The notes below the pieces were generated by a model, which was given only the letters and a program-made list of their open reading frames with translations, was not told the origin of the DNA and ran no database searches. The translations under genes and the position numbers were made by a program. From contig NZ_JACVPR010000001.1 of NCBI RefSeq assembly GCF_018881775.1, positions 1,164,318 to 1,196,317 of the forward strand: a stretch of 32,000 nucleotides of DNA. The letters run 5' to 3'. Below, piece after piece: positions 2,195 to 24,848 of the stretch. Origin of the DNA: Polynucleobacter sp. MWH-Loch1C5. GTDB taxonomy: Bacteria; Pseudomonadota; Gammaproteobacteria; Burkholderiales; Burkholderiaceae. Numbering within the stretch: the stretch's first letter is position 1; each line of letters starts with the position of its first letter.

Positions 2195-4981
2195 ATGTCT
2201 TTAGATTCTCTTTTACTGGTTGACGGTTCCAGTTATCTATACCGTGCTTTTCATGCCATGCCAGACCTTCGTAACTCGCAGGGATTTCCTACGGGTGCGA
2301 TTCAGGGCATGGTCAATATGATGCGCCGCGCCCGTGCAGATTTTCCAGCGAGTCACATCGCCTGTGTTTTTGATGCCAAGGGTAAAACCTTTCGTGATGA
2401 TATGTATCCTGAGTACAAGGCGAATCGTAGTTCTATGCCTGAGGATCTGGCCTTACAAATTGAGGCGATACATCAAGTGGTCAGTGCTTTAGGTTGGCCT
2501 GTACTCGTCGTACCAGGCATTGAGGCTGATGATGTGATTGGTACTTTGGCTTGCCAAGCTTCTCACTTAGGTTGGAGCACAGTGATCTCTACCGGTGATA
2601 AAGATCTAGCTCAGTTAGTCACGGATCAAGTGACATTAATTAACACCATGACTGCTGAAAAATTAGATGTGGCTGGTGTGACCCAAAAATTTGGTGTGCC
2701 CCCCAATCGAATTGTTGATTACCTGAGTATTACGGGGGATGCTGTTGATAACGTACCCGGTGTACATAAAGCGGGCCCCAAAACTGCTGTGAAGTGGCTC
2801 ACTGAGTTTGGCGATTTAGACACCTTGATGAGTCGGTCAGCGGAGGTAAAAGGGGTGGTGGGTGAAAATCTGCGCACGGCTTTACCGTGGCTACCCAAGG
2901 CGCGTGAGTTATTAACAGTGAAGACGGATTGTGATTTAAATGATCATGTACCGCATCTGGAGAAACTGCGAGCGGCACCTGAAGATCGTGATCGATTGAA
3001 GGAATTATTTACTCAATTTGAGTTTCGTTCTTTATTACGCGATCTTGAAAAACATACTCATCTCAGTGGCGATGCCCCTCTGCCACCTCAGGCCGTAGAG
3101 GGTGCCGGTGGTGCGAGCATCACGATCCCTGCTTCTGCAGACTTATTTGGTTATGTGGCAGAGCATGATGCACAGCCTATTGCTAGGCATTATGAGTGTG
3201 TCACTACCCTAGAGCAATTACAAAAATGGCTCCATCAAATTGAGACTGCAACTTTAACGAGTGTCGATACGGAAACGAATAGCTTAGATCCTATGCAAGC
3301 TGAGTTAGTGGGTATTTCTTTATCGTTAGAGTCGGGTCTTGCTTGCTATATTCCGGTAGCACATACCACCCATGAGCAACAATTGGATAAGCAAACAGTT
3401 TTAGACAAGCTTAAGCCATGGTTAGAGAGTGAGCATCATCACAAGTTAGGGCAAAACCTCAAATATGACTGGCATGTATTTAAAAATGTAGGCATCACTT
3501 TGCGAGGTATTGCGCATGACACGCTCTTGCAATCATATGTCTTAGAATCACATCGGTCCCATGATATGGATAGTTTGGCCAAGCGTCATTTAGGCGAGAC
3601 CACGATTAGCTATGAGCAAGTTTGTGGAAAAGGGGCTCATCAAATTACTTTTGATCAAGTTGCGCTAGAGCAAGCGACTGCTTATGCAGCCGAAGATGCT
3701 GACATTACTCTGCGCTTGCATCAAGCCTTGCAAAAAGGCATGCAGTCAGAGCCTCGCCTGAAAGAGGTTTATGAAAAGATCGAGATGCCTGCCATGAAAG
3801 TATTGGCTCGCATGGAGCGTGAGGGTATTTTGATTGATGTGGAGCGGCTCGGTAAGCAGGCACAAGAGTTAGGTCACCGCTTACTGTCTTTGGAAAAACA
3901 GATCCACGAGCTCGCTGGGCAGCCATTTAACATCCAGTCACCCAAGCAGATTGCTGAAATTTTATTTGAGCGCTTGGAGCTTCCTGTGGTGAAAAAAACG
4001 CCATCTGGAGCGCCGTCGACGGACGAAGAAGTCCTGCAAAAACTGGCTGAGAATTATCCATTGCCTGCCAAAATTTTAGAGTATCGAAGTTTGGCTAAAT
4101 TGCAATCGACCTATGTTGAAAAATTGCCACGTATGATTAACCCACAAACTGGACGAATTCATACGAGTTTTTCGCAGGCGGTTGCGGTCACTGGCCGTTT
4201 GGCATCGAGTGATCCCAATTTACAAAATATTCCGGTTCGAACCGAAGAAGGTCGCAAGATCAGAGAGGCATTTATTGCTCGACCTGGTTGTCAATTAGTT
4301 TCTGCGGACTATTCGCAGATTGAGTTACGCATCATGGCGCACATTGCTGAAGATGAAAACTTGTTAAAAGCATTTGCAGCAGGTGAGGATATTCATAAAG
4401 CGACCGCAGCAGAGATGTTTCATGTCTCTTTAGATCAGGTGAATACTGAGCAAAGACGTTATGCCAAAGTGATTAACTTTGGATTAATTTATGGCATGAG
4501 TGCATTTGGTTTGGCTGGTAATTTAGGCATTGAGCGCTCAGCGGCACAGCAATATATTGATACTTACTTTGCACGTTATCCTGGCGTTGCTCAATATATG
4601 GCACAAACTCGAGAACTCGCTAAAGCCAGAGGTTATGTTGAGACTGTCTTTGGACGCCGTTTATGGTTGCCTGAAATAAAGAGTCCTCAGGCCATGCGTC
4701 GTCAAGCAGCGGAGCGAGCAGCAATCAATGGGCCTATGCAAGGTACTGCTGCTGATTTGATTAAATTGGCCATGATTGCAGTTCAGAAATGGTTGGATGA
4801 AGAAGGCTTAAAATCGAAACTATTGTTACAAGTGCATGATGAATTGATATTGGAGACTCCGGAAGAAGAGTTGGCTTTAGTAAAAAAACATCTGCCTGAG
4901 CTAATGACTGGTGTGGCGCAATTAAAAGTGCCGCTCCTTGTTGAGGTAGGGGTGGGTATGAATTGGGAAGAGGCGCATTAG
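2195..4981 (+). CDS. polA: DNA polymerase I
   Basis: 5'-nuclease N-terminus (LLLVDGSSYLYRAFHA), 3'-5' exonuclease motif (VDTETNSLD), and polymerase motifs A (DYSQIELRIMAH), B (RRYAKVINFGLIYG) and C (QVHDELI). ATG at 2195 is preferred over the TTG at 2180 used by the ORF track. Confidence 0.97.
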   Translation: MSLDSLLLVDGSSYLYRAFHAMPDLRNSQGFPTGAIQGMVNMMRRARADFPASHIACVFDAKGKTFRDDMYPEYKANRSSMPEDLALQIEAIHQVVSALGWPVLVVPGIEADDVIGTLACQASHLGWSTVISTGDKDLAQLVTDQVTLINTMTAEKLDVAGVTQKFGVPPNRIVDYLSITGDAVDNVPGVHKAGPKTAVKWLTEFGDLDTLMSRSAEVKGVVGENLRTALPWLPKARELLTVKTDCDLNDHVPHLEKLRAAPEDRDRLKELFTQFEFRSLLRDLEKHTHLSGDAPLPPQAVEGAGGASITIPASADLFGYVAEHDAQPIARHYECVTTLEQLQKWLHQIETATLTSVDTETNSLDPMQAELVGISLSLESGLACYIPVAHTTHEQQLDKQTVLDKLKPWLESEHHHKLGQNLKYDWHVFKNVGITLRGIAHDTLLQSYVLESHRSHDMDSLAKRHLGETTISYEQVCGKGAHQITFDQVALEQATAYAAEDADITLRLHQALQKGMQSEPRLKEVYEKIEMPAMKVLARMEREGILIDVERLGKQAQELGHRLLSLEKQIHELAGQPFNIQSPKQIAEILFERLELPVVKKTPSGAPSTDEEVLQKLAENYPLPAKILEYRSLAKLQSTYVEKLPRMINPQTGRIHTSFSQAVAVTGRLASSDPNLQNIPVRTEEGRKIREAFIARPGCQLVSADYSQIELRIMAHIAEDENLLKAFAAGEDIHKATAAEMFHVSLDQVNTEQRRYAKVINFGLIYGMSAFGLAGNLGIERSAAQQYIDTYFARYPGVAQYMAQTRELAKARGYVETVFGRRLWLPEIKSPQAMRRQAAERAAINGPMQGTAADLIKLAMIAVQKWLDEEGLKSKLLLQVHDELILETPEEELALVKKHLPELMTGVAQLKVPLLVEVGVGMNWEEAH

Positions 4982-16411: not shown

Positions 16412-18928
16412 ATGGCTGTTGCAAAATCAAAAAAAACGATCACCAAAGCAGTTTTGAAAAAGACTGCAGCTAAGCCAGCGGCTAAAAAGCCAGTGGCCAA
16501 GAAGTTAGCCAAACCTGCTGCTAAAAAGGCGGTTGTTAAAAAGCCAGTGGCTAAAAAAGCAGCAGCTAAGCCAGCGGCTAAAAAGCCGGTGGCCAAGAAG
16601 GTAGTCAAACCTGCTGCAAAGAAGCCGGTGGTTAAAAAGCCAGTGGCTAAAAAAGCAGCAGCTAAGCCAGCAGCTAAAAAGCCAGTGGCCAAGAAAGTGG
16701 CTAAACCTGTTGCTAAGAAGCCGGTGCCTAAGAAGGTGGCTAAACCAGTCAAGCCAGTAAAAGTAGAAAAAGGTCCAACGAAAGCTGAAATTAGAGCCGC
16801 AGAGCAAGCTAAGAAAAAAGAACTCCAAGCTCAGTTAAAGCTAGAAAAGCAATTACAAAAACAATTAGAAAAAGAACAAAAAAAGGCTGCGGCTGAAGCT
16901 GCTGCTGCATTAGCTGTTCCCAAAAAGCGTGGCCGCAAACCAAAAGTGGTTGAGCCAGGTGATCCAAATGTTGATCAACGTACAGACCGCCAAAAAGCAC
17001 GTGATCGTAAGGCTAAAGAAAAAGCCTTGCTACAAGAATTCAATGCCCAGAAACTAGGTAGTGAAGAACAGCAAGAGTTACGTCGTGCGCGTTTGAAGCA
17101 GTTGATCAAGATGGGTAAGTCTCGTGGTTATTTGACCCATGGCGAAATCAATGACGTGATGTCTGACGAGATCTCTGATGCAGATTCATTAGAGACTTTG
17201 ATTGGCTTGTTAAGCGATATTGGTATTACTGTTTATGAGCAAGCTCCTGATGCTGAGACTTTGCTGCTCAATGAAAATGCGCCATCAGCCACTACAGAAG
17301 AAGAAGCTGAAGAAGAGGCTGAGGCTGCTTTATCAACGGTCGATTCTGAGTTTGGTAGAACGACTGATCCAGTACGTATGTATATGCGTGAGATGGGTAC
17401 AGTTGATTTGTTGACGCGTGAAGGCGAGATTGTTATTGCCAAAAAGATCGAAGCTGGTCTTAAAGATATGGTGATGGCTTTGTCTGCATGCCCGGTCACC
17501 ATTGCAGAAATTTTAGATAACGCGCAAAAGATTAAAGATGCCACTATGGAAATCGACGAGTTCGTCGATGGTCTCGTGGACCCTAACGCTGAAGATATCC
17601 CTATGTCTGCTGCAGAAGAAGAGGAAGACCTCGATGATGCTGACGAAGATGAAGATGACATGGACGAAGAAGGCGGCGGCGGTGGTGCTAGTGCGGCCTC
17701 AGCTAAACAATTAGAGGAGTTGAAGCAACTTTCACTCGAAAAGTTTGATGTGATTCGCGCGCAATTTGAAAAAATGCGTCGTGCACATGAGCGTGAAGGA
17801 TATAACTCGCCCGCTTATAAGAAAGCGCAAGAAGTGATTCGTAATGAACTCATGGGTTTCAGATTTACAGCGAAATCTGTTGAGAAGTTGTGTGACACCA
17901 TGCGCAAGCAGGTCGATGAGGTATGGACTTTAGAGCGTAATTTGGTCGGTTTGCTGGCGAATAAGGTCGGTGTGCCTCGTAATGAAGTTCTAGCTGCATT
18001 GCCTAAACAGGCTTTGAATTTGAAGTGGACTGCTAACTTACTCAAGGAAGCCAAGCCTTATAGCGCCATTCTCGAGCGTAACGTACCAGCAATTCAAGAG
18101 ATTCAGCAAAAACTGATTGATATTCAGAGCGCAGTTGTGTTGCCGCTTGCAGAATTGAAAGAAGTCAATAAGCGCATGAACGAGGGTGAAAAGCGTGCTC
18201 GTGAAGCGAAGCGTGAAATGACTGTAGCTAACTTGCGTTTGGTTATTTCGATTGCGAAAAAATATACCAACCGCGGTTTACAGTTCTTGGATTTGATTCA
18301 AGAGGGCAATATTGGTTTGATGAAGGCGGTTGATAAGTTTGAATATCGTCGTGGTTATAAATTCTCTACCTATGCTACTTGGTGGATTCGTCAGGCGATC
18401 ACACGTTCTATTGCCGATCAGGCAAGAACCATCCGTATTCCAGTCCATATGATTGAGACGATCAATAAGATGAATCGTATTAGTCGTCAAATCTTGCAAG
18501 AGACCGGTATTGAGCCAGATGCTGCAACTTTAGCGCAGAAGATGGAAATTCCTGAAGACAAGATTCGTAAAATTATGAAGATTGCTAAGGAACCTATCTC
18601 TATGGAGACACCGATTGGTGATGATGAGGACTCGCATTTGGGTGACTTCATCGAAGATACCAACACCTTGGCTCCTGCAGAAGCAGCTTTACATGATTCG
18701 ATGCGTGATGTTGTCAAAGATATTTTGGACTCACTCACACCTCGTGAGGCTAAGGTTCTCAGAATGCGCTTTGGTATTGAGATGAGTACCGACCATACGC
18801 TGGAAGAGGTTGGTAAACAGTTTGATGTCACGCGTGAGCGTATTCGTCAGATTGAAGCCAAAGCTTTGCGCAAAATGCGTCATCCAAGCAGAAGCGACAA
18901 ACTCAAGAGCTTCTTAGAGGGAGATTAA
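16412..18928 (+). CDS. rpoD: RNA polymerase sigma-70 (housekeeping) with long Lys/Ala/Pro-rich N-terminal extension
   Basis: Region 1.1-like segment starts near residue 220 ([23 protein letters not shown]). Region 2 [12 protein letters not shown] and region 4.2 [30 protein letters not shown] are present. Residues 1-215 are extra and in the same ORF with no intervening stop. Confidence 0.95.
16466..16753 (+). repeat. Three tandem copies of a 96-bp coding repeat (32-aa [13 protein letters not shown]... unit)
   Basis: GCAGCTAAGCCAGC(G/A)GCTAAAAAGCC recurs at 16466, 16562 and 16658, an exact 96-bp period, inside the rpoD 5' region. Confidence 0.85.
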
Positions 18929-18935
18929 GCAATAA

Positions 18936-18977
18936 GGGCCCTTAGCTCAGTTGGTTAGAGCAGAGGACTCATAATCC
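18936..18977 (+). pseudogene. 5' half of split host tRNA (CAT anticodon, tRNA-Ile2/ileX-like)
   Basis: GGGCCCT-TA-GCTC-AGTTGGTTA-GAGC-A-GAGGA-CTCATAA-TCC gives the acceptor 5' strand, D arm, anticodon stem 5' strand and loop. The sequence then diverges into island DNA (ATTCACCCGG...). Confidence 0.85.
18968..18977 (+). repeat. attL core (CTCATAATCC)
   Basis: Identical 10-mer at 24695-24704. It corresponds to the anticodon loop plus 3 nt of the split tRNA. Confidence 0.75.
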
Positions 18978-19139
18978 ATTCACCCGGATTGTCCAAAGCT
19001 CTAAAATCCAGTAAAATAAAGGCTTACAGCGTTTTTTTACAAATAAAATCTGCTTACACACCACTTACACACTTTTTCAGCTTTTTAGGGGTGGTTTTGT
19101 GGAGGTTAGCAGCAGTAGTGAAATGAAGGGGGTGTGGCG

Positions 19140-19307
19140 ATGTATAAGGCGCAATACAAAGCGAACAACGCATATGAGAGTTGGACGAACATCGGCACAT
19201 ACAGCAGTGAGAGTGAAGCGATGAATGTGGCGATGAAGAAAAAGAACAGCGGCGCACTGATGGTGAGAGTAATCGATAGAAACGGCAGCGTGGTGTATTC
19301 AGGTTAA
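19140..19307 (+). CDS. 55-aa hypothetical protein (MYKAQYKANNAYESWTNIGTYSSESEAMNVAMKKKNSGALMVRVIDRNGSVVYSG)
   Basis: Read by hand; below the ORF-track size cutoff. ATG is preceded by AAGGGGG 8 nt upstream. It has the island-type T-poor codon usage and ends 9 nt before the element tRNA. Confidence 0.45.
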   Translation: MYKAQYKANNAYESWTNIGTYSSESEAMNVAMKKKNSGALMVRVIDRNGSVVYSG

Positions 19308-19316
19308 AACACAAAA

Positions 19317-19391
19317 GGGCCTATAGCTTAATGGTAAAGCAGGCGACTCATAATCGCTTGAGTGCTGGTTCGATTCCAGCTGGGCCCACCA
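19317..19391 (+). tRNA. Element-encoded complete tRNA with CAT anticodon (Ile2/k2C-type candidate; elongator Met not excluded)
   Basis: 75 nt: GGGCCTA-TA-GCTT-AATGGTA-AAGC-A-GGCGA-CTCATAA-TCGCT-TGAGT-GCTGG-TTCGATT-CCAGC-TGGGCCC-A-CCA. All four stems pair, with one G-T in the acceptor. C4-G69 and C5-G68 are present. No C1-A72 initiator feature. Confidence 0.85.
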
Positions 19392-19400
19392 AATACATAC

Positions 19401-19430
19401 AGAGCTGCTACCGATAGCAGCTCTTTTTTT
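19401..19430 (+). terminator. Rho-independent terminator after element tRNA
   Basis: Perfect 10-bp stem AGAGCTGCTA / TAGCAGCTCT, loop CCGA, followed by a T run. Confidence 0.75.
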
Positions 19431-19481
19431 GTCTGCGGTGTTTTGATTGTCCAAACTATTTAATGACACTACAGTAGCGAT

Positions 19482-21159: not shown

Positions 21160-21600
21160 TTAATCGTTGGCAAAACCTTTGCGCAGCGCAATGCTGGCCG
21201 CTTCGATCTGTGCGTCAAGTTCGCCGTTGCTGATAGCGGACTTAATCAGTTCAAGCGTAGGCACGATATCTTTGCTGTTTGCGATCTCTACTGCCGTTTT
21301 GCCTTTAGCTAACTCAAGTGTTCGTGCGCCGTATTTGATATGGACGCAGAGTTTGCCGTTGTCCGCTACAAAAGTCCAAGCCTTAACAGTTTTGGCAACT
21401 TCGGCTGTTTTACGCAAACCAGTGTCAGCGTCTGTGTAGCTGCGCAGGCGTGTAGCGGTATAGGCAGTGCCGTTTTGCTGTGCTGTGGCTAATGCGATTT
21501 GCTCATCTACTCTGCGCAGCAGTTTATGGCGACGGGCAAGCACAGGGCTGATGTGAGAGGGCTTTTTGGCTGTGGTTAGTTTTAGCTGTGAAAGTGTCAT
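21160..21600 (-). CDS. 146-aa conserved-looking hypothetical protein
   Basis: ATG at 21600 (MTLSQLKL...) follows AAAAGGAG. The sequence is non-repetitive and globular-looking (…RLRSYTDADTGLRKTAEVAKTVKAWTF…LELAKGKTAVEI…GELDAQIEAAS). I recall similar proteins in genomic islands (possibly a DUF family) but cannot verify this. Confidence 0.7.
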   Translation of the reverse strand: MTLSQLKLTTAKKPSHISPVLARRHKLLRRVDEQIALATAQQNGTAYTATRLRSYTDADTGLRKTAEVAKTVKAWTFVADNGKLCVHIKYGARTLELAKGKTAVEIANSKDIVPTLELIKSAISNGELDAQIEAASIALRKGFAND

Positions 21601-21753
21601 TTTTGCTCCTTTTTTGCGATGTGAAAAAAGCACTACGCACAGCACGATATGACCTGAAACGCAGGCTGGACAAGAGTTTTGAGGGCAAAAAGACGGGTTT
21701 GAGCAGAGATGGGAAAAATATTTTGGTTTTCCTGTTCAAACATAAATAACTGT

Positions 21754-22510: not shown

Positions 22511-23047
22511 ACACAGCACAGATACACAATGAACGAACAGTGAATGACAACGGCGACGCAGTGAAACAAAGACACAGCACAGATAGAGATACAGAGGAAT
22601 ACGAAGCAGCAACAAGCAGCACTGTGGTCAAAAATCAGCACATTGATGAAAAATGGGCTATTGCTGAAAAACGCAGCACGGATTTTTAGGGCTACAGCTG
22701 AAAACTGGGTAAGTAGCACACGCAGAGCAACGCACACAGCGCATAGCAAGCACTCAAAACGCTTCTATGCGCTGTTTTTACGCTTTTCGAATAGCAATAC
22801 AGCAGCGCAGTGCTACAAACAGCGTGTAGGGCGTTTTACAGCATCTGTGCTTGTGGCTTTTTGACTACGGATACACGCAGAGCAGCGGTAAATATGTATG
22901 AACAGGAAATACGCAAAAACTGTTCAAACCGTGTAAGCCGTTGATTTTTGGAAGGTCTTTGCGAATCAAAAAGAGGTAGGAAAAACTTTGAAAAGAAAAC
23001 AAACTGTGTGTAGCAATAAATGTTCAAAACCGAAGGAGAGCTACACA

Positions 23048-23614
23048 ATGGCACAAGCAGCAACATTAGACGCACAGCAGCTACAGCGGGTATTAGACTG
23101 CCTGAAAACACGCAGGCACTACAGGCGCAACAGGACGATGATTTTGCTGACGCATTGGTCGATGTTGCGTGTAGGGGAAGTAGCAGCACTGCGCTACTGT
23201 GATGTGTTAGACAGCGATGGGCAGATATTAAGTGAGACCGTGCTGGCAGCAGAGCAGACAAAGGGCGATCGGAGCAGGCGTATTTGGTTTAATGAGCGTA
23301 TGCGGTCAGAGTTGGCAGCGTATGTGGCAGCACACAAGCCCAAATACAAGACACAGAGGCTCTTTTACACGCAGCGCAGTGAAGGCTTTACGGCAAATAC
23401 GCTGACACACATTATCAACGGCATCTACAGCCAAGCGGGCATCGCAAACGCATCATCACACTCTGGCAGGCGCAGTGGGCTGACTACACTGGCAGATAAG
23501 GGTGTGAGTGTGCGGGTGCTGATGGCGTTAGCAGGACACAGTCAAATCGCTACTACACAGCGATACATTGATCTGCGTCCCAGCGTCGTTAGGGCTGCGG
23601 TGGAGTTGGTTTAG
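23048..23614 (+). CDS. Small tyrosine recombinase (catalytic domain only, 188 aa)
   Basis: ATG is preceded by GAAGGAG. Catalytic residues are present: LRVGEV (Arg), TKGDRSR (Lys hairpin), HSGRRS (His-x-x-Arg), GHSQIATTQRYI (His, Tyr). There is no N-terminal DNA-binding domain. Confidence 0.85.
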   Translation: MAQAATLDAQQLQRVLDCLKTRRHYRRNRTMILLTHWSMLRVGEVAALRYCDVLDSDGQILSETVLAAEQTKGDRSRRIWFNERMRSELAAYVAAHKPKYKTQRLFYTQRSEGFTANTLTHIINGIYSQAGIANASSHSGRRSGLTTLADKGVSVRVLMALAGHSQIATTQRYIDLRPSVVRAAVELV

Positions 23615-24468
23615 GAAAGCTTCGAAATAACTATTTCTTCACCACGACAGGTAAATCGTGTAAGAGCATTTTTGTGGGAATGTGAAATCCAACCTCTCGA
23701 AGCAAAATAGATAAGAGCGGCGTGCGCATCAATGCTTACAAAGGCGTCATCATCTGAAATATGTTCATACTTCTCCCACAAACTAAAATCTGGCTCGAGC
23801 TTCAAATATTCGAGTGGCAACGGACTATTTGAAATGTAGAGTTTGACTTCACGAAGCAGTCGAGATGGTATTGAGCAAAGCATACGAAAAATAAGATTAT
23901 TACGGACTGGAATCAAGAACTTCCCTATTTTTTCTGAAACGTTAAGTTCCGAGTAGGGTCTTTGTTCGAGCTTCTTTACGGTCCAAGGGCGACAGTTCCA
24001 GGCTGGACTTAAAACAGCGATTCCATTTGGCTTCAGTATTCTTTCGATCTCTTTAAAAGCTTTTTCAACTTCTGGAATATGCTCTAAAGCGGCAAAGGAA
24101 AAAATAAAATCTACAGATGACGGCGCAAGCGGCAAGGCTCGCGCATCCCCTTCAAAAATATTCAAGTCACTTCCATAAAGTTCTTTTGCCAACGCTACAG
24201 CAGTATTGGAATATTCAAACCCTTTCCAGTTTTTATGGCTGGTATTCAAGTGCCCAAGACCGCAACCGATCTCGATTACCACGGCGTCATCAGTTATCTG
24301 GTGCTGCTTTAAATATTTTTTTACGACTTCCAGCTGTGCGTTGGGCCTTTCTGACGTTTTTTTCTGGTTGTCAAAAGAGCCGTAGTTATGTCCGTCGGCC
24401 TTATACACATCAGAATAAAGTTGCTTTGTGTCAAGTTTTTGACCTTCGCTTAGATTTGTTTGAACCAT
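23611..24468 (-). CDS. Class I SAM-dependent methyltransferase, substrate unknown
   Basis: 285-aa ORF with motif I VIEIGCGLG, then FEGDARALPL, DFIFSFAALEHI and LKPNGIAVL. It also has a ~110-aa C-terminal region of unknown function. Composition is AT-rich and host-like, unlike the rest of the element. Confidence 0.85.
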   Translation of the reverse strand: MVQTNLSEGQKLDTKQLYSDVYKADGHNYGSFDNQKKTSERPNAQLEVVKKYLKQHQITDDAVVIEIGCGLGHLNTSHKNWKGFEYSNTAVALAKELYGSDLNIFEGDARALPLAPSSVDFIFSFAALEHIPEVEKAFKEIERILKPNGIAVLSPAWNCRPWTVKKLEQRPYSELNVSEKIGKFLIPVRNNLIFRMLCSIPSRLLREVKLYISNSPLPLEYLKLEPDFSLWEKYEHISDDDAFVSIDAHAALIYFASRGWISHSHKNALTRFTCRGEEIVISKLS

Positions 24469-24694
24469 TGTCGTTACCGTTGTGTCTATAAGTTATAGTT
24501 AGTTTAACAGCGCACAGCAGAGCAGCATAGAGTTTTGGCTGTGCGCAGAGCATTACTTAAGTGATACATTGCGGTTGCGCTGTGTCTTTCATTGTGTAGC
24601 AGCATAGTGCGCATTTGCTTACACACTTTGCTACACACCAAAAATAATCACGCTATTAGCCGCATAAATGCTGGATTTATTTTGAGTGTCTTTT

Positions 24695-24704
24695 CTCATA
24701 ATCC
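24695..24704 (+). repeat. attR core (CTCATAATCC)
   Basis: Direct repeat of 18968-18977. Confidence 0.75.
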
Positions 24705-24739
24705 TTTGGTCCGCGGTTCAAGTCCGCGAGGGCCCACCA
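24695..24739 (+). pseudogene. 3' half of split host tRNA (CAT anticodon)
   Basis: CTCATAA-TCCTT-TGGTC-CGCGG-TTCAAGT-CCGCG-AGGGCCC-A-CCA. The acceptor 3' strand pairs 7/7 with 18936-18942. Confidence 0.85.
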
Positions 24740-24746
24740 GTATGTC

Positions 24747-24774
24747 AAAAAGCCACCCTTTGAGGTGGCTTTTC
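24747..24774 (+). terminator. Rho-independent terminator of the original tRNA gene
   Basis: AAAAGCCACC / GGTGGCTTTT stem-loop immediately after the tRNA 3' end. Confidence 0.7.
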
Positions 24775-24848
24775 CATTAATACATTTTCATTGGCAAATT
24801 TATTCATAAGGTATAGGATATAAATACCATTCTATATAGGGGGGTGTT

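Follow-up and report, generated by a model that had tools for sequence, protein, structure and literature searches.

A small integrative element of Polynucleobacter splits a host tRNA(CAU) gene and probably replaces it with a tRNA of its own

Introduction

Some temperate phages of Actinobacteria integrate by what Guerrero-Bustamante and Hatfull (mBio 2024, PMC10865867) describe as tRNA-dependent lysogeny: a tyrosine integrase acts on a host tRNA gene through a core of about 10 bp, the tRNA is not rebuilt, and a phage-encoded tRNA of the same isotype was shown experimentally to be required for survival of the lysogen. Table 2 of that paper places the Gordonia phages OneUp and Mollymur at tRNA-Ile2-CAT, with cores of 10 and 9 bp, beside close relatives that rebuild the tRNA. 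Here we describe an integrative element of 5,727 bp in Polynucleobacter sp. MWH-Loch1C5. It lies in a stretch of 32,000 nucleotides (contig NZ_JACVPR010000001.1, positions 1,164,318 to 1,196,317), below called the window. The element splits a host tRNA(CAU) gene and probably replaces it with a complete tRNA-Ile2 that it brings along. It works like the phage system but is not a phage.

The likeness to the actinobacteriophages (Fionnbharth of K4, Cluster L, Gaia, OneUp and Mollymur; PMC10865867) extends over several features. The integrase has its bacterial attachment site, attB, in a host tRNA gene, the core is short, about 8–17 bp in the phages and 10 bp here, the tRNA is not rebuilt in either case, and the window element also has the adjacent tyrosine integrase and the tRNA of the same type. 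Close relatives of the phage integrases that use an ordinary core of 43–52 bp rebuild the tRNA, and the same mixture is seen in the family of the window integrase; Ile2-CAT, Lys-TTT and Lys-CTT are target isotypes common to both families. The carrier, however, is not a temperate phage but a 5.7-kb non-phage element, so that there is no lysogeny, and its hosts are Betaproteobacteria. Its tRNA lies directly inside the left attachment site, attL, and is co-oriented with the broken gene. The requirement for the tRNA has been established by experiment for the phages and is plausible for the window element.

Two prophage-like cases come close. In Sinorhizobium meliloti (2024, PMC11476347), a phage-related insert is reported to have put a tRNA-Leu(UAG) gene out of action and to supply its own copy instead, and a similar case, prophage Lj965 of Lactobacillus johnsonii, is cited in PMC10865867. 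Both share with our element the inactivation of a host tRNA gene by integration and its replacement by an element tRNA of the same isoacceptor, both are bioinformatic, and one is in Proteobacteria. Their tRNAs and integrases are different, and the passages of these reports considered here mention neither a family-wide survey nor a covariation test. Tycheposons, as outlined in PMC10872708, are also small tyrosine-recombinase elements with variable cargo, found in arrays at tRNA genes of streamlined planktonic bacteria, and tRNA-Met(CAT) is among their sites. They are bordered by an intact tRNA, in contrast to our element, and that outline describes no splitting with replacement; we compare the two by lifestyle and architecture only. 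A literature search found no published description of the present element family.

Ordinary tRNA-targeting islands and prophages, as reported by Williams in 2002, cross over in the anticodon loop and rebuild the gene. Relatives of the window integrase behave in this ordinary way at tRNA-Lys, tRNA-Phe and tRNA(CAU). Our element resembles the islands of Islander (PMC4383910) in the anticodon-loop crossover, the integrase beside the tRNA end and the direct repeat at the far end. It differs in that the repeat measures only 10 bp, against about 45 bp, and in that the gene is left in two parts. Such islands carry the 3' part of the tRNA gene and so regenerate an intact gene at the integrase-proximal junction, which the window element does not do.

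Results

The insertion site

In the window sequence the element is flanked by the 10-bp direct repeat CTCATAATCC. The insertion splits the host tRNA(CAU) gene downstream of rpoD at this core, so that 42 nt of its 5' part are left at attL and 45 nt of its 3' part at the right attachment site, attR (Table 1). The 5' fragment starts 7 nt past the rpoD stop and runs through the anticodon loop to the third nucleotide of the 3' stem strand; the tRNA character that begins at 18936 is lost after ...GGACTCATAATCC. Past the core, attL reads ATTCACCCGGATTGTCC..., which has no T arm and is not a tRNA 3' half, and an ordinary restoration of the 3' half of the target was therefore rejected. We located attR, which the sequence-only reading had not given, by its T-loop pattern. 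There the core is followed by TTTGGTCCGCGGTTCAAGTCCGCGAGGGCCCACCA and a hairpin, and the bases to the left of the core differ between attL and attR. The hairpin, probably the terminator of the host tRNA, is now 5.7 kb away from the 5' half of that tRNA. Neither ARAGORN nor Rfam called a tRNA at either junction in the 32-kb window.

The phasin-like protein encoded beside attR is found with identical sequence on many metagenome contigs, and three of these, from the same species (L082, L085 and L087), carry the empty site. They contain dnaG, the 838-aa rpoD, one intact 77-nt tRNA(CAU) and the phasin gene. The intergenic sequence of L082 is the left flank of the window up to 18977 joined to the right flank from 24705, with no element DNA, and the intact tRNA is window 18936-18977 joined to 24705-24739. 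The insertion is thus exact, the tRNA gene is the target and neither junction rebuilds the tRNA. Members of the population thus differ in whether they carry the element, and, as the empty site consists of both host fragments in direct succession, its precise excision would make the host gene whole again. The position of the host gene has a parallel in Escherichia coli, where ileX follows rpoD with mug between them (RefSeq K-12 layout).

Three genomes with the identical phasin gene (L083, L084 and L086, at 3880-4000) have an outer-membrane efflux gene as its left neighbour instead of rpoD and the tRNA, and no tRNA; this is a rearrangement with its breakpoint just to the right of the tRNA terminator. 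The N-terminus of RpoD (16412-16900) consists of long Lys/Ala/Pro-rich repeats (AAKKPVAKK...), which give the protein its length of 838 aa, and the cluster members from related genomes are also 838 aa.

The element-borne tRNA

ARAGORN found a sole tRNA in the window, with the anticodon CAT, in the same orientation as the broken host gene and beginning 340 bp inside the end of the attL core; the Rfam tRNA model gave it 73.5 bits, against a gathering score of 29. Using labelled references from the E. coli K-12 RefSeq record (ileX, that is tRNA-Ile(CAU), metT, metU and metZ), we found 81.6% identity to ileX, 59.7% to metT and 45.5% to the initiator metZ. The identity to an ileY-like gene was 84.2%, and the best matches among 5,424 E. 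coli genomes are genes annotated as tRNA-Ile. The anticodon arm, GGCGA-CTCATAA-TCGCT, is that of the annotated ileX. The 1:72 pair (G1-C72) is intact and the anticodon stem is without the three G-C pairs (GGG/CCC) of the initiator. The acceptor ends read GGGCCTA...TGGGCCCACCA in the element tRNA and GGGCCCT...AGGGCCCACCA in the host tRNA, and the element tRNA has the acceptor pairs G3:C70, C4:G69 and C5:G68, which are invariant in all 12 distinct element tRNAs. Of the acceptor stem, TilS uses the pairs 4:69 and 5:68 in E. coli to distinguish Ile2 from Met; in Burkholderia cenocepacia, which is of the same order as Polynucleobacter, it uses 3:70 and 4:69 (PMC11947777).

By similarity and by these TilS determinants, the element tRNA looks like a tRNA-Ile2. 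The reconstituted host tRNA is also of the ileX type, with 83.1% identity. The two thus share the CAU anticodon and are both nearer to E. coli ileX than to metT or metZ, and yet the element tRNA is only 70% identical to the host gene that it replaces. The sequence-only reading of the window had placed the 75-nt tRNA where we find it, had pointed to the GGGCC acceptor ends of both tRNAs and to C4-G69 and C5-G68 as TilS pairs, had likened the anticodon arm to that of E. coli ileX, and had seen in the element a disruption of the host gene together with a complete Ile2-type copy, by which the host isoacceptor is swapped for the element's version. All of this is borne out here.

The element tRNAs of the family are plainly under selection for structure, judging from their pairing and covariation. 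In 12 distinct intron-less copies, all 252 of 252 standard cloverleaf pairs were formed, and 9 of the 21 pairs have been changed on both sides, that is by compensatory changes. Pairs 1–5 of the acceptor stem are invariant. None of 500 shuffles reached these pairing and covariation values, and slid registers paired at only 28–47%.

The surroundings of the tRNA

The tRNA follows the stop codon of a 55-aa open reading frame (ORF) by 9 nt and is itself followed by an intrinsic terminator, as had been noted from the sequence. Coordinates and a terminator scan agree with this, and the terminator position is conserved in four related loci (L001, L002, L004 and L022). The terminator scan found no plus-strand terminator between the host 5' fragment and this cassette. 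The promoter-like pair of motifs inside attL is also present in L001, L002, L004, L005 and L006.

The mechanical ORF of the 55-aa protein starts at a GTG at 19134. We found 10 homologous copies of the protein, with the stop 7–9 nt before the tRNA. The ratio of non-synonymous to synonymous polymorphism (pN/pS) was 0.05–0.41, mostly 0.05–0.28, and since it is this low in spite of nearly saturated synonymous sites, the ORF must be regarded as a real gene. It had no match in Pfam, PHROG or NCBIfam. Six lineages (L009, L010, L008, L002b, L025 and L094) keep the tRNA without this ORF, and L094 has a larger gene in its place. On this comparison of the lineages the tRNA is the constant part and the 55-aa ORF a feature of a sub-family. 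In the cassette of small ORF, tRNA and terminator that had been read from the window, the ORF is thus a real conserved gene but no necessary member.

An exact 11-nt repeat, GATTGTCCAAA, is found at 18987-18997, 10 nt to the right of the attL core, and at 19445-19455, between the terminator and int, with 0 expected by chance. Its first copy overlaps the -35-like hexamer. The repeat may be a binding site for a protein.

Distribution of the arrangement in the integrase family

A species-level genome scan for relatives of the integrase returned 77 loci, 75 of which were classified, which makes 76 with the window. A split host 5' half was accompanied by an intron-less complete tRNA(CAU) in 7 of the 76, the window included, and by an intron-bearing one in 18. 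An intact tRNA only, directly upstream of int, was seen in 29 loci, a tRNA half only in 3, and no tRNA in 19. A complete tRNA(CAU) thus lies between the split CAU 5' half and int in every one of the 25 loci with a visible split.

Three of the relatives (L001, L002 and L004) have the same gene order and the same split point in the host tRNA(CAU), after ...GGACTCATAATCC and before ATT..., in differing host contexts. Their own complete tRNA(CAU) lies about 90–100 nt before int and is followed by a terminator. Near-identical elements also occupy different host tRNA contexts.

Scanning metagenomes for the junction pattern gave 23 junctions. The left flank is the host tRNA 5' half (attL) in 13 of them, the right end of the element in 6 and non-tRNA sequence in 4. 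The element tRNA is found downstream in 12 of the 13 attL junctions. The six junctions of right end, core and left end are on short contigs of 1.3–3.5 kb and could be either excised circles (attP) or tandem arrays. Such arrays are seen in L002 (12954-13335), L008 (597-978) and L034 (2441, 8661 and 8894), where the hybrid junction of one element has received a second, with its own tRNA(CAU) and integrase; in L034 there are three 5' halves in a row. The bins of L007, assigned to Nitrospira, and of L008, assigned to Halomonas, are probably mistaken. The left end of the element is joined to non-tRNA DNA in L092 (the same as L007; 9213), L093 (3401), L102 and L111, which could be secondary attachment sites, rearrangements or mis-assemblies.

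More distant relatives of the integrase adjoin intact tRNA-Lys (TTT or CTT), tRNA-Phe or tRNA-Leu genes. Where the far end can be seen, in the tRNA-Lys loci L050, L053 and L056, the 3' 45 nt of the tRNA, from the anticodon loop, are repeated there, so that the tRNA is rebuilt, and L067 has the same mode of rebuilding, over about 45 bp, at a tRNA(CAU). Because relatives rebuild their Lys or CAU target through such repeats, the family is best described as an anticodon-loop-targeting lineage with mixed modes, in which some branches have a short core and their own tRNA. Two integrase relatives at 31–32% identity come from Methylophilaceae. In one (L081), a tRNA-Phe(GAA) 5' half breaks off within the anticodon loop, 268 nt from the start of the integrase, and no complete tRNA was seen in the vicinity; the other (L079) has a tRNA-like 5' half 1,540 nt upstream of the integrase; they may be splits without replacement, or remnants.

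Introns in sister elements

The replacement tRNA(CAU) of 18 genome loci has an insert of 205–250 nt in its anticodon loop (Table 1). Each of these intron-bearing tRNAs lies between the host 5' half, which is split and has no intron, and the integrase that follows. The insert occupies one of two positions, CTCAT^AATCC and GGACT^..CATAATCC. The Rfam model Intron_gpI gave 78 bits in L017 and 57 bits in L034, against a gathering score of 50, and 45 bits (E = 2e-10) in L022, which is below gathering.

The intron-bearing copies keep an anticodon stem of the host type (GAGGA/TCCTT or GCGGA/TCCGT). The intron-less element copies have GTCGA, GAGAA or GGCGA instead, with an inner stem of CGA/TCG or GAA/TTC against GGA/TCC in the host (window 19344-19360 against 18963-18977). 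In both types, L025 excepted, the tRNA gene of the element therefore lacks an uninterrupted core of the host type.

Integrase, backbone and cargo

The integrase has more than 1,800 homologs, several of which match Pfam PF00589, and many of them, 85–97% identical, are in freshwater metagenomes and metagenome-assembled genomes of Burkholderiales. Residues R233, R373/H374 and Y406 are invariant in the alignment of homologs. A tblastn search with the integrase against 50,697 phage records returned a single match, of 25%, in Psychrobacter phage Psymv2, and a sequence search of the PDB gave no match. Membership in the integrase family of Fionnbharth and LeBron was considered and dropped, as no phage relative beyond the Psymv2 match was found. 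Because that match is the only one among the phage records, it seems that the window integrase has an origin independent of the phage integrases.

The repeats of (G/A)CTTACACAC lie about 80 nt from the core on both arms and look like arm-type integrase sites, going by their pattern and placement; the motif is also found in L002, L004 and L022. The element has six genes, coding for two recombinases, a DUF6641 protein, two proteins without assigned function and a methyltransferase. No match to the 202-aa ORF was found in Pfam, PHROG or NCBIfam. For the short recombinase, the mechanical ORF starts at a TTG at 22988, and the 188 aa are counted from the ATG. Its orthologs are found in L001–L003, the gene is conserved in the element family and it directly abuts the variable cargo gene. 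The short-recombinase region of L004 carries an IS21-type insertion. The cargo slot, 23615-24500, holds a single gene, with a backbone shared with L001, L002 and L004 up to 23614 and again from about 24501, in the right arm. The gene in the slot codes for the methyltransferase in the window, for a 299-aa protein in L001 and, in both L002 and L003, for an acetyltransferase.

Pfam and PHROG scans found no phage structural, lysis or repressor genes on the element, and the junction pattern had no match among the viral contigs of IMG/VR. When the DNA of the whole element was searched against plasmids and phages, only the 75-nt tRNA matched, and we therefore rejected the element as a known plasmid or phage.

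Table 1. Features of the element and its flanks in window coordinates, and intron-bearing tRNA genes of sister elements in the coordinates of their own loci
Feature	Position	Strand	Basis
Host rpoD, 838 aa	16412..18928	+	ORF list and translation; exact match to RpoD of Polynucleobacter sp. MWH-Loch1C5
Host tRNA-Ile2(CAU) 5' fragment, 42 nt	18936..18977	+	Identical to first 42 nt of intact tRNA, L082:3815-3891
attL core CTCATAATCC	18968..18977	+	Sequence comparison
Promoter-like pair TTGTCC-17 nt-TAAAAT, pointing at the cassette	18989..19017	+	Consensus scan; putative function
Two direct copies of (G/A)CTTACACAC, putative left-arm integrase-binding sites	19052..19072	+	Pattern search; putative binding
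Conserved 55-aa basic protein (pI 9.4), ATG to TAA	19140..19307	+	WP_216149808, hypothetical protein
Element complete tRNA(CAU), Ile2 type, encoded CCA, 75 nt	19317..19391	+	ARAGORN, Rfam, E. coli comparison
Intrinsic terminator: perfect 10-bp stem 19401-19424, 4-nt loop, seven T	19401..19431	+	Terminator scan
Tyrosine integrase, 453 aa	19482..20843	+	PHROG phrog_1 integrase, E = 2.4e-33
DUF6641 protein, backbone gene	21160..21645	-	Pfam PF20346, E = 7.7e-14; syntenic in L001-L004
Backbone ORF, 202 aa, 8 AUA codons	21709..22317	+	ORF list
Second short tyrosine recombinase, catalytic domain only, 188 aa	23048..23614	+	Pfam PF00589, E = 2.5e-24
Cargo class I S-adenosylmethionine-dependent methyltransferase	23611..24468	-	Pfam methyltransferase domains
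Copies of GCTTACACAC / GCTACACAC motif, putative right-arm sites	24617..24638	+	Pattern search
attR: core CTCATAATCC (24695-24704) and host tRNA 3' fragment to CCA	24695..24739	+	Identical to 3' 45 nt of intact L082 tRNA
Hairpin after host tRNA, probably its terminator	24746..24775	+	Read from sequence
Intron-bearing tRNA-Ile(CAU)	L014 9619-9901; L017 9581-9904; L022 9611-9899; L034 8886-9180		
Further intron-bearing tRNAs, 14 loci	L018, L019, L023, L024, L035, L037-L039, L042, L044, L046, L061, L063, L064		

Discussion

The sequence-only reading had taken the disruption and replacement of a tRNA gene for an undescribed strategy. This cannot be upheld, as it has been published as tRNA-dependent lysogeny, phages at tRNA-Ile2-CAT included (PMC10865867), and there are the similar cases of S. 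meliloti and Lj965. What is new is the tiny non-phage carrier, an integrase unrelated to those of the phages, and the betaproteobacterial hosts; the strategy itself is already described.

The process probably goes as follows. The tyrosine integrase would recombine CTCATAATCC, the 10-bp core of the element, with the stretch of the host tRNA-Ile2(CAU) gene that covers the anticodon loop and three adjoining bases of the 3' stem, with strand exchange presumably within the anticodon loop. The gene is left split because the element shares only 10 bp with it. The element tRNA would be transcribed from the promoter-like site inside attL, by read-through from rpoD and the tRNA, or both, and would be processed, lysidinylated by the TilS of the host and charged by the isoleucyl-tRNA synthetase, IleRS. 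It would in this way take over the decoding of AUA for host and element genes; the host genes in the window have 27 AUA codons, 4 of them in dnaG. Without such a tRNA, the reasoning behind tRNA-dependent lysogeny goes, integration would harm or kill the cell. Precise excision would regenerate the host gene.

That the element compensates for the lesion it makes appears well supported by the sequences compared here. The expression of the tRNA, its lysidine, its essentiality and the absence of a second host copy are inferences. A dependence of the host on the element tRNA is plausible only for as long as the element is integrated, and it is supported indirectly by the retention of the tRNA, with compensatory changes, in all 25 split loci. 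It is the integrated state that would depend on the tRNA; the cell itself could do without the element, since its own gene is restored on excision. For the same reason curing would need no tRNA supplied in trans.

Some observations weigh against replacement as the role of the tRNA. The exception among the 13 metagenome attL junctions, L103, is a deletion derivative on a contig of 1,902 nt. After the split host half and the left arm comes a truncated integrase that is fused to the short recombinase, and the small ORF, the tRNA and the N-terminus of the integrase are all missing. A split gene without an adjacent replacement can thus persist, at least under some circumstances, for instance in a tandem array, beside a second copy or in a dying lineage. 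In L025 (9611-9909 and 18665) there is no difference between the element tRNA and the two halves of the split host tRNA, so that it is not always a foreign version; this suggests that the host gene was captured recently, or gene conversion. A second intact tRNA-Ile2 gene may lie beyond the 32-kb window. Finally, the element genes in the window use AUA at 17.5 per 1000 codons, against 4.0 in the host genes (28% against 7% of the Ile codons; Fisher p = 6e-7), with 10 such codons in the integrase alone. In view of this four-fold excess, the tRNA may be of use, in addition or instead, for translating the genes of the element itself.

This last point, together with the loss of the tRNA from the deletion derivative L103, is what speaks for the tRNA being mainly a supplement to the codon usage of AUA-rich element genes, like many phage tRNAs, in a host with another tRNA-Ile2 to which the split costs nothing. 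We regard this as improbable. The isotype that is carried is the isotype that is destroyed in all loci with a visible split, and the relatives that rebuild their target (Lys, Phe) were not seen with an extra tRNA. Polynucleobacter genomes are moreover streamlined, the window being from a contig of 1.63 Mb, and streamlined genomes are expected to hold single-copy tRNA sets. The two roles are in any case not exclusive. A role as a spare copy in counter-defence, which would resist or outnumber anticodon nucleases and be located at the split gene incidentally, has been raised for phage tRNAs by the authors of PMC10865867, and the element tRNA does differ from the host tRNA in the anticodon stem. 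Such a role would leave unexplained both the match in isotype with the split target and the absence of the tRNA from target-rebuilding relatives, and Pfam, PHROG and NCBIfam scans, with the PADLOC defence library not searched, found no nuclease or defence gene on the 5.7-kb element; we think it very unlikely.

No more credit can be given to an identity as elongator or initiator tRNA-Met, by which the function of the split gene would not be replaced at all. ARAGORN labels every CAT tRNA 'Met' and deposited phage records name similar genes tRNA-Met, whereas the identity is 82–84% to E. coli tRNA-Ile(CAU) as compared to 60% for metT and 46% for metZ. Both Met identities were rejected on this ileX-likeness, which includes the anticodon arm and the pairs G3:C70, C4:G69 and C5:G68, on the intact 1:72 pair and on the lack of the initiator GGG/CCC stem. 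Fragments of tRNA genes are common beside islands (Islander, PMC4383910), and the tRNA at 19317 could on that ground be the true host gene, with the 5' fragment upstream an older relic and nothing disrupted. This is refuted by the empty site, where the intact gene of the same species is made of exactly the two fragments and there is no element DNA, and the 19317 tRNA also travels with the element into other hosts (L001, L101, L110 and L114); the chance that it is right is negligible. Replacement of the split tRNA-Ile2 by the element's own remains the reading that we prefer.

The differences between the replacement genes and the host core suggest, from their sequences, that the replacement gene is protected from serving as an attachment site itself. 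Across the integrase family, the replacement tRNA-Ile2 would be kept from becoming a target either by changed inner stem pairs, in the intron-less copies, or by an intron that splits the core (CTCAT^AATCC). We put this forward tentatively and consider it somewhat less probable than its opposite. If true, targeting by the integrase would be a selective force on the sequence of tRNA-Ile2 and on the retention of introns in tRNA. Small elements would also spread intron-bearing tRNA-Ile(CAU) among Betaproteobacteria by replacing the resident intron-less gene, and this could explain the patchy occurrence of such introns, of which that of Azoarcus is the classic example. The introns of the sister elements are probably similar in sequence to the Azoarcus intron. 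The group I intron of the Azoarcus pre-tRNA-Ile(CAU) (PMC13168695, PMC3984707) has its counterpart in the group I introns of 205–250 nt in the anticodon loop of the sister elements' tRNA-Ile(CAU), with the difference that the intron-bearing gene of the latter travels as cargo on an integrative element, in place of a host gene that has no intron and has been split. The comparison concerns the sister elements, the tRNA of the window being intron-less; through them, mobile elements are linked to the group I introns of bacterial tRNAs.

To split a tRNA gene and bring one's own is thus not peculiar to the actinobacteriophages, as an unrelated lineage of integrases uses it too. Freshwater Burkholderiales (Polynucleobacter, Limnohabitans, Rhodoferax and others) commonly carry non-phage elements of this kind, 5–11 kb in size. 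Programs that find islands by a rebuilt tRNA and a long displaced fragment will miss them, and annotation will show a "tRNA-Met" inside an island and overlook the broken native AUA decoder. The compact module of int, attP and tRNA is a possible integration vector for bacteria that are hard to manipulate, as has been proposed for mycobacteria. As integration swaps a core component of translation for a foreign version of 70% identity, the tRNA-Ile2 genes of these bacteria would be horizontally replaceable.

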